Positions 14,350-25,763 of a DNA stretch of 64,000 bases are shown piece by piece. The notes under the pieces are model-generated. The model was not told the DNA's origin. It saw nothing but the letters and a program-made list of their open reading frames with translations, and searched no databases. A program made the position numbers and the translations under genes. Position 1 is the stretch's first letter. The number at the start of each line of letters is the position of its first letter. Source of the stretch: Syntrophorhabdaceae bacterium (GTDB lineage Bacteria; Desulfobacterota; Syntrophorhabdia; Syntrophorhabdales; Syntrophorhabdaceae); NCBI GenBank assembly GCA_963665295.1, contig OY762209.1:3136001-3200000 (forward strand), written 5' to 3'.

Positions 14350-15582
14350 ATGAATAGCGGGGAATTAAAGGAGCGGCTGGAACAAAAAGAACAGGAGTTG
14401 AGAATACTGCACGAAGTGGCTCAGGATATCAGCAGCAACCTTGACCTTCATGAGCTTCTCGTAAAAATAGTCGACATGGTTATGAATACCATTGCCGCTG
14501 ATTCGTGCCTGATTTATCTGTACGATAAGCATAACGAAGAGCTTACCCTCACAGCGTCAAGTAACGCGGACCACAAGATGCTGGGAAGGGTGAAACTCAA
14601 AATAGGCGAAGGTGTTACGGGTTGGGTTGCAAAAGAGAAGAAGCCCCTGGCCTTGGAAGCCAAGGCCTACAAGGATCAGAGATTCAAAACCTTCACATCC
14701 CTGGACGACGAAAAATATGAAGGCTTCCTCTCCATACCTATTCTCTCCAAGAATGAGATCGTGGGTGTAATGAACATCAGAAACCGCAAGGAACATCGTT
14801 ACCCGACCCACCAGATAGATCTCCTGTTCACTGTGGGCAGGTATCTGGGGAGCGCCATTGCAAATGCGAGGATCTACGAGGAAGTGGTGAGCAAGGCAAA
14901 ACAACTCGACCTGCTCTCGGAAGTATCCCGTACCATCGTTTCCGATTATTACCTGAAGGAGATCCTCCAGCTTATTGTCACCATGACCGCGGAAGTGATG
15001 GATTCGAAGATATGTTCGATAATGCTTCTGGATGAGAAGAAGGAAGAGTTGATCATCGCTGCCACCCAGAGCCTGAGCCAGGAGTACCTGAGCAAGCCGA
15101 ACCTGAAGGTCGGCCAGTCGGTGAGCGGCAGGGTGGTTCTGGAGAAGAAGCCCATTACCGTCGAGGACGTGACAATGGAGAAGGGCTTTATGTTTCCCGA
15201 TGTGGCGAGAAAGGAGGGCATTGTATCACTTCTCTCCGTTCCCATGATGATCAAAGACAGGGTCGTAGGGGTTATCAACAGCTATACCCAGAGCGAACAT
15301 AACTTCAATAAAGAGGAAATTGACATTCTTCAGACAGTGGCCAATCAGGCTGCCGTGGCCATAGAAAACACCCACCTGAGTCAGGAGATATTCGCCGCAA
15401 AAGAGGCCCTCGAAGCCAGAAAGACCATTGAGCGGGCAAAAGGAATACTGATGAGGGAATTGGGCGTCTCCGAGGATGAGGCATACAAGAAGATCCACAA
15501 GAAGAGTATGGACCTCAGAAAGACCATGAAAGAGATTGCCGAGGCAATCATCCTGACCTTCGACCTCAAGAGAAAGATTTAA
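14350..15582 (+). CDS. GAF-GAF-ANTAR RNA-binding antiterminator
   Basis: Two GAF domains (GEGVTGWVA; LLSVPMMIKDRVVGVIN) and a C-terminal ANTAR (RKTIERAKGILM...EDEAY..I.KKSMD.RKTMKEIAEAII). Confidence 0.95.
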   Translation: MNSGELKERLEQKEQELRILHEVAQDISSNLDLHELLVKIVDMVMNTIAADSCLIYLYDKHNEELTLTASSNADHKMLGRVKLKIGEGVTGWVAKEKKPLALEAKAYKDQRFKTFTSLDDEKYEGFLSIPILSKNEIVGVMNIRNRKEHRYPTHQIDLLFTVGRYLGSAIANARIYEEVVSKAKQLDLLSEVSRTIVSDYYLKEILQLIVTMTAEVMDSKICSIMLLDEKKEELIIAATQSLSQEYLSKPNLKVGQSVSGRVVLEKKPITVEDVTMEKGFMFPDVARKEGIVSLLSVPMMIKDRVVGVINSYTQSEHNFNKEEIDILQTVANQAAVAIENTHLSQEIFAAKEALEARKTIERAKGILMRELGVSEDEAYKKIHKKSMDLRKTMKEIAEAIILTFDLKRKI

Positions 15583-15662
15583 CACCTCTTTGCATCAGCC
15601 CTCCGGTTGACCGGGTTCCGCCCTTCCGTACCGGCAGGTTACCATATGGGTCAGGCGGGAAC

Positions 15663-15691
15663 TTGACACGGGGTGCTGAAAGGAGTATTAT
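15663..15691 (+). promoter_or_regulatory. sigma70-type promoter for the sigma-factor gene
   Basis: TTGACA-17 bp-TATTAT. Confidence 0.75.
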
Positions 15692-15701
15692 AAACTTAAG
15701 T

Positions 15702-15759
15702 AGACATTGAAGTCTCCTGGTAGAGGCTGCTAATAAAAGTTAGGCGGACTTAGGCGTCC
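15702..15759 (+). promoter_or_regulatory. ANTAR-type dual-hairpin leader
   Basis: AGAC-ATTGAA-GTCT (15702-15715) and GGAC-TTAGGC-GTCC (15746-15759); both hexaloops have G at position 4, and the second overlaps the terminator 5' arm. Confidence 0.7.
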
Positions 15760-15796
15760 AAATCACCATGGGTGGTTTGAACGCCTTTTTTGTTTT
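15752..15796 (+). terminator. intrinsic terminator (attenuator) in the sigma-gene leader
   Basis: AGGCGTCCAAATCACC-ATG-GGTGGTTTGAACGCCT followed by TTTTTGTTTT. Confidence 0.85.
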
Positions 15797-15822
15797 CGTC
15801 CGCGACAAACGAGGTGGCGAAC

Positions 15823-16386
15823 ATGGAGAGAAACAGGGTTACCAATGAGGACGGAAAATGGGGCATGACCTTCGACAGCCTTGTGCACAGGATATCCCCT
15901 ACGCTTAAAAGAATCACGAAGCGGCTGAACGGCCACTTCTCTTTCTTTAACGATGAAGACCTGTACCAGGAGGCGCTGACCCACCTGTGGGTCGATTACA
16001 GGGAAGGCGTGCTTGGCGACAAGACCGACAGCTATATTCTGCAGGGGTGTTATTTTCACCTGAGAAACTACCTCCGCAAGGTTCAGGATAATGTGGTCGT
16101 CTTGAGCTTCAACGCCCCTGTCGGCGAAGACGGTACGAGATTGGAGGATCTGGCGGCGATTGATGACGGGGTTCGCTTCGATCATCTGGAAAGCAGGCTG
16201 CAAATGGAGGTGGCGGAGAAGAGATATTTTACGGAGAGAGAAAAGAATGTGTTGATGCTCTTTCTGGAAGGCATGTCGATGAGGGAAATCGGCAGCAAGC
16301 TCGGCATATCCCACGTGATGGTGCTGAAAATAAGGAACCGGATCAAAGACAAATATGTACAGTTCAATAAGGAAACGCAAAATTAG
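15823..16386 (+). CDS. alternative sigma-70-family (ECF/SigH-like) sigma factor
   Basis: Region 2 (EDLYQEALTHLW...YFHLRNYLRK) and region 4 (TEREKNVL...GMSMREIGSKLGISHVMV); GAGGTGG RBS. Confidence 0.88.
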   Translation: MERNRVTNEDGKWGMTFDSLVHRISPTLKRITKRLNGHFSFFNDEDLYQEALTHLWVDYREGVLGDKTDSYILQGCYFHLRNYLRKVQDNVVVLSFNAPVGEDGTRLEDLAAIDDGVRFDHLESRLQMEVAEKRYFTEREKNVLMLFLEGMSMREIGSKLGISHVMVLKIRNRIKDKYVQFNKETQN

Positions 16387-16447
16387 GTTAACAGACTCTT
16401 GATGGTGCGACTTGTAGTATTATAGCCCAAAGTAAGGGCATAGAAAT

Positions 16448-16506
16448 CACGTTGATGTGGATTGAAACGACGGCGTTCTGGCAAAACAGAGCGCCGTCTT
16501 GCGTTG
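16448..16506 (+). promoter_or_regulatory. ANTAR-type dual hairpin plus overlapping terminator-like stem
   Basis: CAC-GTTGAT-GTG, a 6-nt linker, then AAC-GACGGC-GTT overlapping a 12-bp stem GACGGCGTTCTG/CAGAGCGCCGTC with a weak U tail. Confidence 0.7.
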
Positions 16507-16687
16507 CAGTCGGGTGGCAGGGACATGTCGGGACGGGTGATCCTGGAGGCGTCTACCGGAAAACATAAAGGAGGTGGAGGGAAGGACTGTGTGAAACAGT
16601 TTGCAAGAAGGGCAGTCGAGATAGTAAAACGTTGGATGACAAAGAATTCCGTGTTCCGGCACGGAGCACAAAATCAGGAGGTGTGAA

Positions 16688-17638
16688 GTGAAATTGGCGA
16701 GATATTTACTGCTATTTTTCGTGTTATCATTTTTCGCATGCACAGGTATTCTCCATGCAGACGAAGCAAAGGCACCGGAAGCAAAAGGCATCGATAAGAC
16801 CATAAAGGTTGCGGGCGATCAGGCAGCCGAGGGTGCTCAGAAAGAGGTTCCCAAAGCGGACGCTCCCAAAGCGGAGGAGCCGCCGGCCCTTACGGGCAGC
16901 GTATCAACCGCTGTTTTAAACAGGTACATCTTCCGTGGATACCGGATCGGTGAAAGCGGGCTTGTAATCCAACCGTCCGTTTCCGCTTCGTTCAAAGGCT
17001 TTACCGCAACGTACTGGGGGAACTATGATACCCACCAGACGAACACCACGTCCGCCACATTTGCGAGTGAGGGGCAGGGAGGATACAATGAAACGGACTT
17101 GACCTTGAGTTATACCTACACGATAAACAAGCTCTCTCTGACGGGCGGGTATATCCACTATGAGTTGAGGTACGCAAAGTCGACGGGTGAGTTCTTTACC
17201 ACCATCGCCTATGATATGCTCACAAAGCCTACCCTGTCAGTCTACCAGGACGTGAGCGCCTATCCCGGGACCTACCTCAATCTTTCCTTTGCCCATTCCT
17301 TCAACCTTCCTAAGGATATAACCCTCGATCTCGGTGCGTCTTTCGGATATGAGGCGGGACAGGGAAGATACTGGGAGACCTATCAGCCTTCCACGGCGGA
17401 CTACAGTGGAAGCAAGTACAAGGGGTTCCACGACGGTATGGTAAAAGCGGGGTTTACGATCCCTGTGACCAAAGCCTTTCTTGTCCAGCCTGTGTATCAG
17501 TACTGGTTCCCCCTCTCGGCGGATTCGAACAGGACCTATGGTACCGACCCGGCGAGCGGTCTCCGGATACCCTATAACCCGAACGGCTATCTCACGAGCA
17601 GCCAGGTGTATGGAGTGAACTTTGTGTATAATTTCTAG
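16688..17638 (+). CDS. outer-membrane beta-barrel protein (Gcw_chp/TorF-like putative porin)
   Basis: Signal peptide, YIFRG...IQPS and ETDLTLSY motifs, C-terminal Phe; AGGAGG RBS, GTG start. Confidence 0.75.
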   Translation: MKLARYLLLFFVLSFFACTGILHADEAKAPEAKGIDKTIKVAGDQAAEGAQKEVPKADAPKAEEPPALTGSVSTAVLNRYIFRGYRIGESGLVIQPSVSASFKGFTATYWGNYDTHQTNTTSATFASEGQGGYNETDLTLSYTYTINKLSLTGGYIHYELRYAKSTGEFFTTIAYDMLTKPTLSVYQDVSAYPGTYLNLSFAHSFNLPKDITLDLGASFGYEAGQGRYWETYQPSTADYSGSKYKGFHDGMVKAGFTIPVTKAFLVQPVYQYWFPLSADSNRTYGTDPASGLRIPYNPNGYLTSSQVYGVNFVYNF

Positions 17639-17886
17639 TTTCAGCAGTATTTTTGCCGCAGTGTTGCGGTAACCCCCTGACTGATCAGGTTCTAATCGCA
17701 TTAAAAGACATTGAAGTCTCTTTGAGCTACGCCTCTTGCCGCACCAGAGGCGAGGCGTAGCGCGGAAGTACCGTAAACGGACTGTCCGGTTCGCAAGGTT
17801 GTTGCCCGAGGTGCGTGCAGATGCGGGATTCGGAATTCGGAAAACAGGCTCAAGAACGGCTATTTCCAAACTGGAGGAGGAAGACT

Positions 17887-18153
17887 TTGAGTGACGAAAC
17901 AGACGAAAGGATTCCGGCGCATTGGTATGAGGCAACAGAGTCGAGGTATGTATGTTTGTGCTGTCACAAAGTCTTTAGTCGGGTATATAAGCCCAGAAAC
18001 ATCCTCCGAAGGAAGAAGAAAGGCCGCGGGGCCAACATGTTCTCCCTGTGGGCCTGGCACAACTTCAGGAAACATTTGTTGAAGTGCTGGGGCAACCGCA
18101 GTCTTCCGGGAAGGGAATCATCGGGCCACGGTAATATGGGCAAAACCGACTGA
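17887..18153 (+). CDS. small basic putative zinc-finger protein (88 aa)
   Basis: GGAGGAGG RBS then TTG; YVCLCC...HLLKC motif; ends 30 nt before amtB. Confidence 0.65.
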   Translation: MSDETDERIPAHWYEATESRYVCLCCHKVFSRVYKPRNILRRKKKGRGANMFSLWAWHNFRKHLLKCWGNRSLPGRESSGHGNMGKTD

Positions 18154-18183
18154 CACGGGTAGCCGAAAAAAAGGAGGCTCAAG

Positions 18184-20107
<1,924 letters not shown>

Positions 20108-20457: not shown

Positions 20458-21810
20458 TCAGAAGAAATACCACGCGGCGACTCTGAAGGAGTGTAATGTC
20501 GCATCTTTGCTGAGAGTCGGAATGACGCCCAGGCCCGACGGATCGGGGACTGTCCCGTAGTTCGCGTAGCGGGTGGCGAAGTACGCGTACTCCGTGGCAA
20601 ATCTCACTGAATCATTTACGTCATAGCAGAGGCTCACAATGTACTGGGTAGCGTTCTGCACTGTATTGGCGTGGGCGAAGCGGGAAGTGAGAGAGGTCTT
20701 GGCCGCATCATAGGCGCTGCTTGTGTCGTTTCTGAGATAACCGTACCAGCCGCTTACGAACAGCCTATCGGTAAGGTGGTATGATATCTGTCCCCAGCCA
20801 CCGTACATCTTTGGTGCGACGAAATCCGGGGTCTGGCCGGCAGGCTGGGAAGGCGGTGTGGTGAGGTCGCTCGGTCTCGCATAGGAGCCGGCGGAGTATG
20901 CCCTCGACTGGAGCCATGAGGGGTTCTGCGCGACAAAGAGGATGCCCGATACAGACAACGCTCCCGCCTTGCCGGATGGTTTTTGGGAGACTATGGGGAC
21001 GAAACCTTTGAGCGCGAGTCCCCAGGAATCCACATCCTTGTACGCATAGGTGATCGAGGTGGGGGCGCCGGCGGGGCCCGTGTACTGGGTGGCCCACCTT
21101 TTCTCCTGTCCGTAGAAGGCATCGATGTTCCACTGCAATTTCCACGAACCGATGGTTCCCCACCTGTCCGATGACCAGCCCAGAGAGGTTTCGTAGAAGG
21201 GCATCTGACTCGCGGTAAACCCGTCCACCACCCCTGTGTCGGTCATCGAGCGGTTGCTTCCGAGGGTATTGGTGGGAGACAAGAGGGCAAAAGAAAGGTT
21301 CCAATCCTTGGCAAATTTTCGTTCTACCCTGATCATGGGCTGGCGGCTCCCCTTCACGAAGGGAGTAAGGTCGTTGCCGCTCGTGATCATATTGGCGTAA
21401 GTGGGAAGGAAACCCCACTTTTGAAAGGTGTGCCCGATAACAAGCTTTGTCTGAGGCCAGTCGAAGGTCATGAAGGCGTGTCTCATGGCAAAGGAACCCC
21501 TTGGGGCGCCCGCATACACGCCATTGAAGTCGCCTTCGACAAAGGCCGATGTTTTTGCGCCCCATGCCTCCGGGCCTCGCGTAAGGAAGTTTATACGGGA
21601 CCCGCTGGAATACCCCGAGGTTATGCCTTCCTTCCCGTTGGGGTCCCTGTAGGCGCCGGACCCGTGCCTGCCCTGGTCCGTGTAATCCATCTCAAGCTTG
21701 ACATAACCGCCGATAGTAAGATCCCACATGCTTGTGGCGCTGCCCGCGAGAGCAGCGGCCGGGGCGGCAAGGAGCAGCAATAGATGCAGAATAATGATGA
21801 TTTTTGTCAT
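20458..21810 (-). CDS. DcaP-like outer-membrane porin
   Basis: Signal peptide, TIGGYVKLEM, SRINF, AFVEGDF, MRHAF, RQPMIR, aromatic C-terminus WYFF. Confidence 0.75.
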   Translation of the reverse strand: MTKIIIILHLLLLLAAPAAALAGSATSMWDLTIGGYVKLEMDYTDQGRHGSGAYRDPNGKEGITSGYSSGSRINFLTRGPEAWGAKTSAFVEGDFNGVYAGAPRGSFAMRHAFMTFDWPQTKLVIGHTFQKWGFLPTYANMITSGNDLTPFVKGSRQPMIRVERKFAKDWNLSFALLSPTNTLGSNRSMTDTGVVDGFTASQMPFYETSLGWSSDRWGTIGSWKLQWNIDAFYGQEKRWATQYTGPAGAPTSITYAYKDVDSWGLALKGFVPIVSQKPSGKAGALSVSGILFVAQNPSWLQSRAYSAGSYARPSDLTTPPSQPAGQTPDFVAPKMYGGWGQISYHLTDRLFVSGWYGYLRNDTSSAYDAAKTSLTSRFAHANTVQNATQYIVSLCYDVNDSVRFATEYAYFATRYANYGTVPDPSGLGVIPTLSKDATLHSFRVAAWYFF

Positions 21811-21978
21811 TCGTGGCGTCACGCTTCCATTAACGGGGGTGATCTCCTGAAAGGCGTGGCCGGTGGGTATTCGTCCGAAAGTCTTCGGGAGTCCGGTGAT
21901 AGATAGCATAGGGATGCGGAGGTTGTCAAATCATTCGGTGGGGTTTGCCGGAAAGTTTCCGTGAATGGCTGGACGCCC

Positions 21979-22012
21979 TTGACATTCAAATAATCTATGT
22001 TAATGTTATAAT
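21979..22012 (+). promoter_or_regulatory. promoter of the peptide/radical SAM operon
   Basis: TTGACA at 21979 and an extended -10 TGTTATAAT at 22004-22012. Confidence 0.6.
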
Positions 22013-22062
22013 TATAGCCTGAAGATATGAACAAAAATTTACGCGAAAGGAGGTGAGAAGCC

Positions 22063-22185
22063 ATGAAGAAGATCCTGAGTAAAGAGGTCCTTGAGAAAGA
22101 GGCATCCTTTTGGACCACGATGAAGGAGGCTCTCAAAGAGAGTCCGGCGAAAGAATGCCGCAAGTGAAAGAGCTGAAAGAGCTAG
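22063..22185 (+). CDS. putative selenocysteine-containing RiPP precursor MKKILSKEVLEKEASFWTTMKEALKESPAKECRKUKSUKS
   Basis: AAAGGAGGTGA RBS, ATG at 22063, in-frame TGA at 22165 and 22174 in C-x-x-U-x-x-U spacing, TAG at 22183, SECIS-like hairpin next, radical SAM/SPASM gene downstream. Confidence 0.8.
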
Positions 22186-22186
22186 C

Positions 22187-22203
22187 GTTGCAGGTTCTGC
22201 AAC
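22187..22203 (+). promoter_or_regulatory. bacterial SECIS-like hairpin
   Basis: GTTGCAG-GTT-CTGCAAC, near-identical to the E. coli fdhF minimal SECIS GGUUGCAGGUCUGCACC; 10 and 19 nt after the two UGAs. Confidence 0.75.
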
Positions 22204-22213
22204 CCAAAAAGAA

Positions 22214-22247
22214 GAGGCAGATATGACGGAGTTGTCATATCTGCCTC
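22214..22247 (+). terminator. intercistronic 14-bp stem-loop
   Basis: GAGGCAGATATGAC-GGAGTT-GTCATATCTGCCTC, no strong U tract. Confidence 0.7.
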
Positions 22248-22275: not shown

Positions 22276-23334
22276 ATGTCCGTTAATCGAGCATATTCAT
22301 TCTTCGTCCAGTGGCACCTGACGGAAAGATGCAACCTCGCGTGTACCCACTGTTACCAAGACAAGGCAAGAGCAACGGAGATGACCCTGGAGCAGATAGT
22401 GGGGGCCATGTCCGACGTGGTCGACATGCTGGACTCATGGTCCGGTGCGTACGACATGGAATTTTCCCGGAGTTTCAACATTACCGGCGGGGAGCCCTTT
22501 CTTAGAAAAGACCTCTTTGCGATCCTCGAGGCGGCGGCGTACCACGGCTTTGACAATTATCTTCTCACCAACGGGACACTTATCGACAGGGAGAAGGCCC
22601 GCACCCTGTCCGACCTCGGCGTCCGGGGTGTCCAGGTGAGTTTTGAGGGGCCCAGGGAGGTTCATGAAGCGATAAGGGGCAAAGGAACCTTTCCTCTCTC
22701 CGTCGCAGGCGTATGTCATCTCCGGGATGCGGGAATACCGGTGACCATGAACGTCACCCTTTCTTCTCTCAATGCGCCCTATCTCCCGGAACTTATGAAC
22801 CTTGCCTCCGACCTGGGCGTGCCGAGGCTCGGGTTTTCGAGGCTGGTGCCTTCAGGCAGGGGGATGGGCCTTCTTGGAAGCATGCTTTCAAGAAGGGAAG
22901 TGAAAACTCTCTATGAGGAAATATTTCGTCGCACCCGTGAGGACGTGGAAGTGGTGACCGGCGATCCCGTGGCGGCCCAGATGGTTGTGCCCCCGGACAC
23001 GGAGGGAGCCGACGCAGAGGGTATGGAGACTGTGCCCAACGGAGGGTGTGCCGCGGGCGTTTCCGGTCTGACGTTTCTCCCTGACGGCACGATCACCCCC
23101 TGCCGGAGACTGAATATTCCTCTTGGTAATGTGCGGACCGATTCGCTCCGTGAGATATGGGCAACTTCGCCGGTGCTGGAAGGATTGAGGACGAAAAGCG
23201 CATATAAAGGAAAGTGCGGGACCTGCCGGCGATGGTCGGCTTGCCGAGGATGCAGGGCGATAGCCTATCAATACTCGCTCTCAAGAGGTATGGGTGACTA
23301 CCTTTCAGATGATCCTCAGTGCTTTATCGAGTAG
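22276..23334 (+). CDS. radical SAM/SPASM domain protein, putative peptide maturase
   Basis: QWHLTERCNLACTHC, TGGEP, and a 7-Cys SPASM (GCAAG...PC...CGTC-x5-CRGC...DPQC); GGAGGTGG RBS. Confidence 0.92.
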   Translation: MSVNRAYSFFVQWHLTERCNLACTHCYQDKARATEMTLEQIVGAMSDVVDMLDSWSGAYDMEFSRSFNITGGEPFLRKDLFAILEAAAYHGFDNYLLTNGTLIDREKARTLSDLGVRGVQVSFEGPREVHEAIRGKGTFPLSVAGVCHLRDAGIPVTMNVTLSSLNAPYLPELMNLASDLGVPRLGFSRLVPSGRGMGLLGSMLSRREVKTLYEEIFRRTREDVEVVTGDPVAAQMVVPPDTEGADAEGMETVPNGGCAAGVSGLTFLPDGTITPCRRLNIPLGNVRTDSLREIWATSPVLEGLRTKSAYKGKCGTCRRWSACRGCRAIAYQYSLSRGMGDYLSDDPQCFIE

Positions 23335-24164: not shown

Positions 24165-25333
24165 TCAATAAAGAAACATGGGTTTGCCGAGGGTATCCCG
24201 CACCTTGGGCCTGTATTCCTCAAGATCGTAGAGGGCGGTAACGTCGACCTGTTTTCTCGCAGCGCCTACAAGGTCGAGAGGGACGGTCGTATATATTCCC
24301 TGTTGGAGGGCGACCATTCTTCCTGTGTGGCCCATAGCTATCTGGTCGAGGGCGAGGTTGCCATAGGAGACCGCGACCATTCTGTCCAGGGAATCGGGCG
24401 CGCCGGAACGCATGATGTAAGCCAGTTGTTGGTAGATGATGTTGATGCCCGTTCTGTCCTTGATCTCGTGTGCCACTATGTTGCCTATGCCTCCGAGCTT
24501 CTTGTGGCCGTACGCATCTGCCTCACCACTTTCGAGAATCAGCCCTCCCAGTTGGCGTGCGCCTTCAGAAATGGTCATTATGGCATAGTGCGACGGGTTC
24601 CGTGAGCGGTCTTCGACGAGAAAACGGGCGACCCGTCTACGTCAAAGGGCACCTCCGATATTAACGCCCGGTCCACGTCAGCGAGGTACGCGGCAAACAA
24701 GGAGGTTTCCCCCGAGTTTCTGCCGAATAGTTCCACCACGCATATGCGCTCGTGGGAGCCCGCGGTGGTCCTGAGTGCGTGGATTGAGTCCACGGAGCGT
24801 GTTACCGCGGTCGAAAAGCCGATACAGAAGCCGGTGCCGAACACGTCATTATCCATTGTTTTCGGAATGGCGACAATCTGAAACCCTGCCTTGTGGAGAT
24901 GATTTGCGTAGCTCAGAGTGTCGTCTCCCCCGATGGCGATAATTGCATCCAGCGAGAGATAATCAAGCACATCCATTATATGGGGAGTGCAATCGACCGT
25001 ATTGCCCGGACCTGTAATGCGCTTGCTTTCCGGTATGAAGTCGGGGACTTCGCCAGGCTTCATATTTGCGGGATTGGTCCGTGAGGTGTGGAGAACCGTT
25101 CCACCCGTGCGGTCGATGGTGCGAACCCTTTCCGCAGGCAGGGGCATGGTCCATTTTTCCACTGAACCGGGATCGTCGGGGTTAAGGCACATAAGGCCCA
25201 TCCACCCCCTCCTGATGCCTATGATATCGATCTTGTGGGTGGACGCCCGTGTCACGACCGCCTTGATCGCCACATTGAGGCCGGGCACGTCACCGCCACC
25301 TGTAAGTATCCCGATATGCTGTTTGTTGGTCAT
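24165..25333 (-). pseudogene. pfkA: 6-phosphofructokinase (PPi-type signature), frameshifted near 24632
   Basis: [34 protein letters not shown] and ELFGR in one frame; [25 protein letters not shown]...RSGAPDSLDR continues in another frame. Confidence 0.85.
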
Positions 25334-25763
25334 CCGGTTCTCCTCCCTTTGGTATTGACTACGTGAGGACACGCATTCCTGTGGTCGGCCGACGGGTGAA
25401 CGGTGTCGCTGTCATTTTCTCTACCTCGGTGTAAACCTGTTTCCCCTTCTTCATCGGTTTCCATTCATCATTTTGCCGGTTTGATGCTGATTATGCCATA
25501 TTCGCTCATCTGAAGGCGATCTCCTGGATCAACCCGAGGTGTTGGGGGACCGGATAGTACGAGACTCGGCGGGAGGAGAAAAATGGTCGCGCAAGAACGG
25601 GGGCTGCGCGGCCACGCTGTCCACGATTTTTCACTGTGTCCATTTATAATGCGAATGTATGCGTAGGGATGAAGATTGTCAATATCGGCCCGGCCGATTG
25701 TCTTGGTCCCCGCCAATCGTGTCTCGGGACCGCGTGCCGGCGCGGATGTAAAGAAAGGAGGCC

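Follow-up and report, generated by a model that had tools for sequence, protein, structure and literature searches.

A small gene with two in-frame UGA codons and one conserved hairpin past its stop codon, adjoining a radical SAM/SPASM gene in Syntrophorhabdaceae

Described selenopeptide systems and the layout of the locus

SbtA/SbtM is the thio(seleno)oxazole system of a 'selenobacteriocin' precursor (TIGR04081) and its maturase (TIGR04082) (PMC9204691; PMC13188914, Table 1). SbtM is described as forming thio(seleno)oxazoles at Gly-Cys/Sec (PMC9204691), and the selenobacteriocin is the sole peptide of such kind in the 119-family table of PMC13188914. The thioether-forming SPASM maturases PapB and Tte1186, whose natural substrates have Cys, also accept Sec substrates according to the account in PMC10177961, where selenium binds an iron of the auxiliary cluster. 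On the RNA side, the consensus bacterial SECIS is given in PMC13188914 as a 4–16 bp stem with a 3–9 nt apical loop, a G in the first two loop positions, a UGA-to-loop distance of 16–37 nt and a folding energy at or below -7.5 kcal/mol, and the fdhF SECIS of E. coli is described with a spacing of 11 nt, a bulged U17, G23 and U24 (PMC8659212). A perfect 7-bp stem with a GGU loop past the stop was proposed as the SECIS of the SaoC C-terminal Cys-Sec proteins (bioRxiv 10.1101/2022.07.06.499078). A shared single SECIS was raised as a possibility for the UxxU Group 4 [NiFeSe] hydrogenases, which have two UGAs two codons apart (PMC13582414), and a single SECIS is stated for the animal protein SelL with the same UGA spacing (as cited in PMC4989117).

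The locus described here lies in a 64,000-nt stretch of contig OY762209.1 (assembly GCA_963665295.1; hereafter the window) and comprises a tiny gene, truncated in databases, whose frame is interrupted by two UGA codons and whose stop is followed by one conserved hairpin. By the standard code, the ORF from the ATG at 22063 terminates at TGA 22165..22167 (UGA 1), where gene callers end it, and the 34 residues match the 34-aa products annotated in databases. When TGA is read as Sec, the plus-strand gene (22063..22185) encodes 40 residues ending in CRKUKSUKS before a TAG at 22183..22185, with UGA 1 and UGA 2 (22174..22176) as the inferred Sec35 and Sec38. The product has a basic helical leader, conserved at residue level with E13, A14 and W17 invariant or nearly so (E13 100%, W17 98%), and the core C32-x-K-U35-K-S-U38-K-S. 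A strong Shine-Dalgarno site (AGGAGG, 22049..22055, plus strand) is recognised by sequence ahead of the ATG, and a candidate sigma-70-like promoter with an extended -10 lies at 21985..22012 on the same strand by consensus match only (10/12), two such matches being found in the region against 0.8 expected. The hairpin, with a GG-led loop 16 nt from UGA 2 and 25 nt from UGA 1, occupies 22187..22203 (plus strand) and begins 1, 10 and 19 nt past the TAG, UGA 2 and UGA 1, respectively, exactly as first described. A second, long hairpin (22214..22247, plus strand; -25.3 kcal/mol, z -6.1) fills the gap before the gene of a 352-aa radical SAM/SPASM protein without an RRE domain (22276..23334, plus strand), which is likely the maturase of the peptide. 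Contigs from four sequencing runs, two of which may be source data, showed no alternative letters where they covered the locus.

Pfam and NCBIfam yielded no match for the peptide, 40 members giving only scattered weak unrelated matches, and Rfam gave 0 matches in the window at the gathering score. The window contains the hairpin string and the repeat string one time each, and 0 of 100 shuffles contain either one, a result that speaks to uniqueness only because the patterns were derived from the locus. Elsewhere in the window, a porin-like gene at 20458..21909 (minus strand; a weak Porin_4 match below cut-off) is divergent from the peptide gene and is not a conserved neighbour. The stretch 14350..20107 carries a nitrogen-type cluster with an ammonium transporter (TIGR00836), together with what we take to be a PII-like gene and a GAF/ANTAR-like regulator. 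At 24165..25372 (minus strand), one gene, presumably phosphofructokinase-like, appears as two abutting ORFs, suggesting a frameshift.

Like SbtA/SbtM, this pair couples a short precursor with several Sec residues to a neighbouring radical SAM/SPASM enzyme, and both systems occur in the same phylum. SbtA carries Sec in a G-U-G motif, whereas the core of this family is CxKUKxUK; SbtA-type precursors exceed 100 aa and mostly have one hairpin per Sec, whereas this peptide has 40 aa and one hairpin. At E 0.1, TIGR04081 matched 0 of 40 peptides, and the 352-aa enzyme reached 126.8 bits against a cut-off of 350 for the 516-position TIGR04082 model. SbtM rows form their own branch (support 100), separate from that of the enzyme, and no SbtM gene was found in this genome. 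Judged by these comparisons, the pair resembles SbtA/SbtM without being a member of it, and appears to be a second selenopeptide/maturase family. The two systems can meet: one contig (G259:C54:70313-77528) bears the cassette and an SbtM gene about 5.5 kb apart, and SbtM occurs in 5 of 26 peptide-positive genomes of the phylum against 29 of 401 overall, with kin among them non-independent.

The hairpin is like the consensus SECIS in its short stem, G-led loop, distance and energy (PMC13188914), and its loop lies within the consensus distance of both UGAs, with UGA 2 at the lower edge of the window. Compared by description only with the fdhF element (PMC8659212), it has no bulged U, its stem spacers are 10 and 19 nt, and it lies past the stop and would serve two UGAs. 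The placement had been singled out as unusual. The position past the stop stands and follows from the Sec residues being 6 and 3 positions from the C-terminus, but the distance is an ordinary bacterial one and precedents exist in SaoC and in SbtA-type peptides. Four SbtA-type precursors were recovered from 14 SbtM loci; a hairpin past the stop for the last Sec was flagged by script in two of the four and seen by eye in a third, and one precursor has two Sec five codons apart with a repeated hairpin after the second only. SaoC, as described in the preprint, differs in having one Sec in a 158-aa lipoprotein, with three examples and no maturase. In the UxxU hydrogenases as presented in PMC13582414, the SECIS is embedded in a long coding sequence and forms with Cys are frequent, and SelL is metazoan with a eukaryotic SECIS (as cited in PMC4989117). 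Here, no coding constraint acts on the hairpin in most loci, and its covariation can therefore be read directly.

Conservation of both UGA codons and of the single hairpin

The main set of loci was fetched via the enzyme only. Among 44 loci with a full-length close orthologue, 41 carry the peptide upstream; the other three are cut by a contig end, hold a leader-less remnant, or have no peptide. Scored with a pattern permitting Cys or Sec, all 41 loci have TGA at both sites, and Cys32 is invariant. The Sec sites are followed by Lys, rarely Asn, the Lys after UGA 2 being invariant (AAG 35, AAA 6), and the Ser between the UGAs is encoded by synonymous codons (AGC 24, AGT 4, TCC 3). At the position of the true stop stand TAA (21), TAG (9), TGA (9) or, in 2 loci, a sense codon that precedes a stop, so that a third TGA swaps freely with TAA and TAG and the first two never do, which provides an internal control. 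In a profile search with the peptide, carriers numbered 26 among 401 phylum genomes and 48 among 96 genomes of the order. Named relatives belong to Nitrospirota and Thermodesulfobacteriota. Two TGA codons were seen in 25 of the 26 and 47 of the 48 matches, both exceptions being alignments that end early with both codons present.

Cysteine is scarce at these sites. A metagenome pattern permitting any TGN returned at least 120 loci, and the matches listed comprise 119 TGA/TGA and 1 TGC/TGA, with TGA at site 2 in 120/120. The single TGC/TGA locus (L194; Cys-x-x-Cys-x-x-Sec) retains the hairpin and belongs to a lineage in which the enzyme ATG overlaps the peptide stop; P0105 is an apparent second variant with Cys at site 1. 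A search of 1.84 billion representatives gave 111 matches, 107 of which end at C-x-x, one of those with Cys at site 1; Cys at both sites was found in 0 of the 111. In metagenomes, 125 stretches fit an all-Cys pattern, none of them confirmed as a relative, and a single-sequence search returned two 34-aa matches only. The sole full-length database match (P0012) has Trp at the UGA positions and is a member of a 34-aa cluster; it was read as a code artefact of the gene caller. An altered genetic code was rejected. TGA is the commonest stop here (745 of 1591 long ORFs in the genome).

These data bear on the plainest alternative, in which UGA 1 is an ordinary stop, the product has 34 aa and requirements of the RNA account for the conserved bases downstream. 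The 34-aa database annotations and the shortness of the downstream stretch would suit it. It is nevertheless highly improbable given the synonymous changes, AGC/TCC among them, the Cys substitution at site 1, the interchangeable third stops and the start-stop overlaps at the third stop. In 23 of the 44 loci whose enzyme starts at the hairpin, the enzyme ATG or GTG overlaps the third stop, mostly in one lineage; these overlaps support the third stop as a working stop and hint at translational coupling. The original suggestion that product length could vary with selenium supply is weaker than that of the shared SECIS. The pattern of conservation favours the 40-mer, with selection acting on the full length and the 34- and 37-mers likely by-products.

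The hairpin pairs perfectly and without a bulge, either over 7 bp around a 3-nt loop or over 6 bp around the loop GGUUC (-8.5 kcal/mol). Its folding energy alone is weak evidence and modestly unusual, with shuffles folding equally well in 2 of 200 cases for the 21-nt piece, 12 of 200 for 50 nt and 33 of 200 for a 41-nt context. The genome has 4213 in-frame TGA-6nt-TGA pairs, of which 6 are followed at 15–23 nt by a GG-loop Watson-Crick stem of at least 6 bp; 2 of these 6, this locus included, also have a Cys codon three codons upstream, by criteria chosen after the locus had been seen.

Conservation with covariation, as read from the alignments, is the decisive evidence against a chance hairpin. 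The original prediction turned on whether TGA-containing homologues keep the element, and it was found in 41 of 41 loci that had not been selected for it, with the GG of the loop invariant (41/41, alignment A1). Over 40 distinct rows, 95.7% of cells pair, against 82.9% in shuffled alignments and at most 57.4% in slid registers. Changes on both sides occur at 4 of 7 stem pairs, a count reached by 3 of 500 shuffles, and the covariation score of 0.303 is reached by none of 500. The loop-closing pair is A-U in 24 rows, U-A in 12 and C-G in 4. Mapped on the enzyme tree, every one of these classes takes 3 to 7 changes, of which well-supported branches force at least 2. Further pair types (6 against 7.0 in shuffles; 480/500) are not above shuffles, three stem pairs never vary, and the related genomes in the conservation counts are non-independent.

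An extended set of 179 distinct rows combined 78 from genomes with 101 from a metagenome scan selected by the hairpin pattern. A stem of at least 5 pairs is present in all 179 rows (78 not hairpin-selected), and the GG lies 15–23 nt past UGA 2 and 24–32 nt past UGA 1, always beyond the stop (179/179, 101 of them hairpin-selected); 6 of the 179 rows have it at 15 nt from UGA 2, just under the 16-nt lower bound. An independent second G-loop stem for UGA 1 was found in none of 177 rows, and in the other two the candidates are alternative pairings of the same bases. In one lineage (L076, L077, L079–L082), the loop reads UGGAU on the same stem with the GG 18 nt after UGA 2. A small stem around UGA 2 in the window is not conserved. 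With both UGAs and the hairpin conserved, both distances in range and a second hairpin not found, a single SECIS serving both UGAs is a well-supported reading of the alignments, and the shared SECIS-type element of the original prediction is the only candidate. Its description as a SECIS outside the coding region applies in part. It always lies beyond the peptide stop, but in 44 of the 179 rows, after one false match among 45 had been discarded, the first conserved motif of the enzyme lies within 62 nt of UGA 2, which puts the hairpin at or inside the radical SAM start. The perfect 9-bp duplication that had drawn attention (22165..22173 identical to 22174..22182) is exact here and incidental, being present in 4 of 41 loci and 24 of 179 rows, and was rejected as a mechanism.

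The genome has selA, selB, two selD genes (one with an in-frame TGA) and one tRNA-Sec; one SelB exceeds its cut-off and one tRNA-Sec the gathering score, and two further ARAGORN tRNA-Sec candidates from a relaxed search are pseudogene-grade. A motif scan for other selenoproteins gave 75 rows, mostly noise, and the four recognisable genes that were used have GG-led loops at 17–20 nt. They are selD and, presumably, a formate dehydrogenase and two MvhD-type genes. The SECIS of the formate dehydrogenase type has an upper stem without a bulge, so the missing bulged U, correctly noted at the outset and matched by a perfect stem, is normal in this genome. An ORF that we take to be transposase-like ends about 25 nt from the 3' end of the tRNA-Sec gene (G000:C1:2037277-2038127). 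Elsewhere in the genome, at G000:C1:1693925-1694015, ARAGORN reports an unusual tRNA-Gly of 91 nt that has the anticodon ACC and a long variable arm. In the order, selA was found in 46 of 48 carriers, the two misses being 73–75% complete, and in 90 of 96 genomes overall, which makes co-occurrence of peptide and selA non-discriminating there. Outside the order, 27 of 33 carriers have selA and 5 of the 6 misses have SelB or tRNA-Sec; for one peptide-bearing MAG (G490), searches found none of selA, selB and tRNA-Sec.

There is a slight chance that a SECIS-dependent tRNA-ReC/SelB* system inserts Cys at one or both UGAs, or that only the better-spaced UGA is decoded efficiently. tRNA-ReC is enriched in genomes with UxxU hydrogenases, and caution on this point is raised in PMC13582414. 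In G443, one of the genomes with the peptide, an additional and shorter SelB-like gene adjoins a weak tRNA-Sec-like match of 50.8 bits (G443:C14:99573-100799), possibly a SelB*/tRNA-ReC system. In the genome studied here, by contrast, no second SelB or non-canonical tRNA was seen besides the single SelB and tRNA-Sec, by models that are not specific for tRNA-ReC. Moreover, TGC or TGT should be common were Cys enough, and the matches listed have a single case at site 1 and none at site 2.

The radical SAM/SPASM partner and the peptide leader

The enzyme matches PF04055 and PF13186 over cut-off, and its cluster cysteines, 3 in CxxxCxxC and 7 in the SPASM part, are invariant in 72 of 72 enzymes. 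A quick tree, in which long branches meet between SbtM and the outgroup, placed these 72 rows on one branch apart from SbtM (SH-aLRT 94), 68 of them with the peptide. Within the order, 48 genomes carry the peptide and 47 the enzyme, with 44 carrying both. In each of the four peptide-only genomes, the enzyme gene next to the peptide is broken or cut off by a contig end; in G041 and G095 the enzyme is present and no peptide was found, and one further match is weak. In one locus (L040), the leader is deleted, and the remnant, about 180–130 nt ahead of the enzyme, retains C-H-K together with both TGAs and the hairpin. A gene with an in-frame TGA, which we take to be selD-like, lies about 650 nt upstream on the opposite strand. 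In another locus (L108; G037:C14:27500-30500), the cassette is closely followed, in convergent orientation, by a further radical SAM/SPASM gene that is only distantly related (26% identity).

Whether the peptide is a substrate at all bears on the most serious alternative, in which both UGAs are read as Sec through the one hairpin but the peptide is an unmodified metal- or cluster-binding subunit or regulator and the enzyme acts on a small molecule in the manner of AhbD or NirJ. The best NCBIfam scores of the enzyme are to NirJ2 (181 bits) and AhbD (176 bits), and CxxUxxU could supply three ligands, its spacing being like CxxCxxC, which resembles metal-binding motifs. No RRE, protease or transporter/exporter is conserved nearby: no neighbour family occurs in more than 8 of 44 loci within flanks of 1.5–4 kb, and inspection of the ORF lists of six wider loci revealed no conserved accessory gene. 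These scores, however, lie far below the cut-offs of 500, and none of the best 25 families listed, AhbD, NirJ2, GeoRSP and ACGX included, reaches its own cut-off. ESM Atlas returned generic radical SAM/SPASM clusters only. The structure model (pLDDT 88.7) has as its nearest solved folds SkfB, PqqE, SuiB and anSME, all peptide maturases, and the SPASM part has 7 rather than 8 Cys. The usual layout of a precursor is also seen, with a short gene for leader and core immediately upstream and often a strong hairpin in the gap before the enzyme gene, and this linkage of a leader-core gene to the enzyme is of RiPP type. The subunit reading is accordingly improbable, and the preferred reading keeps the peptide as a substrate.

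The 34-aa leader part alone was co-folded with the enzyme alongside three controls. The pair scored 0.84, the best control 0.02. Of 157 solved complexes, 116 attained the mark set by the pair, as did 2 of 215 mismatched pairs. At least 87% of contacts are shared between runs, with a partner pLDDT of at least 74. E13 and W17 make the tightest modelled contacts, to W55, Y59, R292 and W295 on the enzyme (94–100% conserved), and the best contacts join invariant or near-invariant residues of both partners. The model supports binding of the leader to the enzyme. Solved leader-maturase complexes exist (5v1t and 9gm3; 15–20% identity), so the pass may partly reflect likeness, and the modelled binding would suit a subunit as well as a substrate.

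The small ORF could also act mainly as a selenium-sensing leader, in which the progress of the ribosome through the two UGAs controls the radical SAM gene and either length or stalling is the signal. Of 131 spaced loci, 111 have a strongly folding stretch downstream of the SECIS, and the enzyme start lies at or in the SECIS region in the 44 of 179 rows, 23 of them overlapping the true stop, an arrangement that would tie enzyme synthesis to full read-through. Contrarily, the 5' arm of the second hairpin is unchanged when the closing pair of the SECIS changes; switch pairing between the two was rejected for lack of covariation. Coupled lineages are mostly without the second hairpin (40 of 42), and the leader is conserved residue by residue and modelled as a specific binder. 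A role confined to sensing is thus quite unlikely, and translational coupling can coexist with a substrate role. The second hairpin, terminator-like by score in this locus on the minus strand only, is likely an mRNA stabiliser or a leaky terminator.

Proposed mechanism and meaning of the system

Taken together, the preferred mechanism is that the post-stop hairpin recruits SelB for both UGAs and that the leader docks on the adjacent enzyme, which modifies the Cys-x-x-Sec-x-x-Sec core; we regard this as probable. Its RNA step, read from the conserved sequences, is very probable: one hairpin would decode both UGAs, acting twice as the ribosome advances three codons, first over 25 nt, then over 16 nt, and would be too near the third stop to rescue it, even where that stop is UGA. 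For the protein step, there is good reason from the model to expect that a leader helix (E13, F16 and W17) binds the W55/Y59/R292/W295 patch, upon which the docked enzyme would modify the selenium-bearing core of the peptide.

The chemistry of the enzyme is the least certain step. PapB and Tte1186, which share the radical SAM and auxiliary clusters but whose substrates differ in that this core is without their Asp/Glu acceptor pattern (PMC10177961), and SbtM frame by analogy what is likely here. The 7 invariant SPASM Cys, shared between two clusters, would leave one iron free for a Cys or Sec side chain. Formation of seleno/thioether cross-links, perhaps to the invariant neighbouring Lys, is the first choice, with a chance somewhat short of even; SbtM-like oxidation to seleno-oxazoles is a more doubtful second choice, and some other chemistry, placed third, is about as doubtful. 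A wider joint reading would make this a second, near-obligately selenium-dependent RiPP class with a two-Sec SECIS, an RRE-less enzyme that knows the leader by its W55/Y59/R292/W295 patch, Se-C cross-links in a natural product, a selenium gate formed by the hairpin itself and a 34-aa decoy, and as a whole it is unlikely. For the gate, the hairpin would bury the maturase start in some lineages, and the enzyme would be made only after both UGAs had been read; for the decoy, the 34-aa truncation would keep the entire binding leader and divert the enzyme under selenium shortage.

The family is absent from NCBIfam release 20, from Pfam and from the 119-family table of PMC13188914, and no publication on it was found in the open-licence literature. 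The family is a clean natural system for asking whether two UGAs can share one bacterial SECIS, with a 40-codon gene, a hairpin without coding constraint, spacing variants of 15–23 nt, a natural Cys/Sec hybrid and alleles with UGA as the true stop, and the two-gene cassette is small enough for direct expression. Almost all selenoproteins are described as having Cys homologues (PMC9312934); that no all-Cys form of this peptide was found suggests that selenium is needed for its function. The pair would be the second genetically encoded selenium RiPP system.
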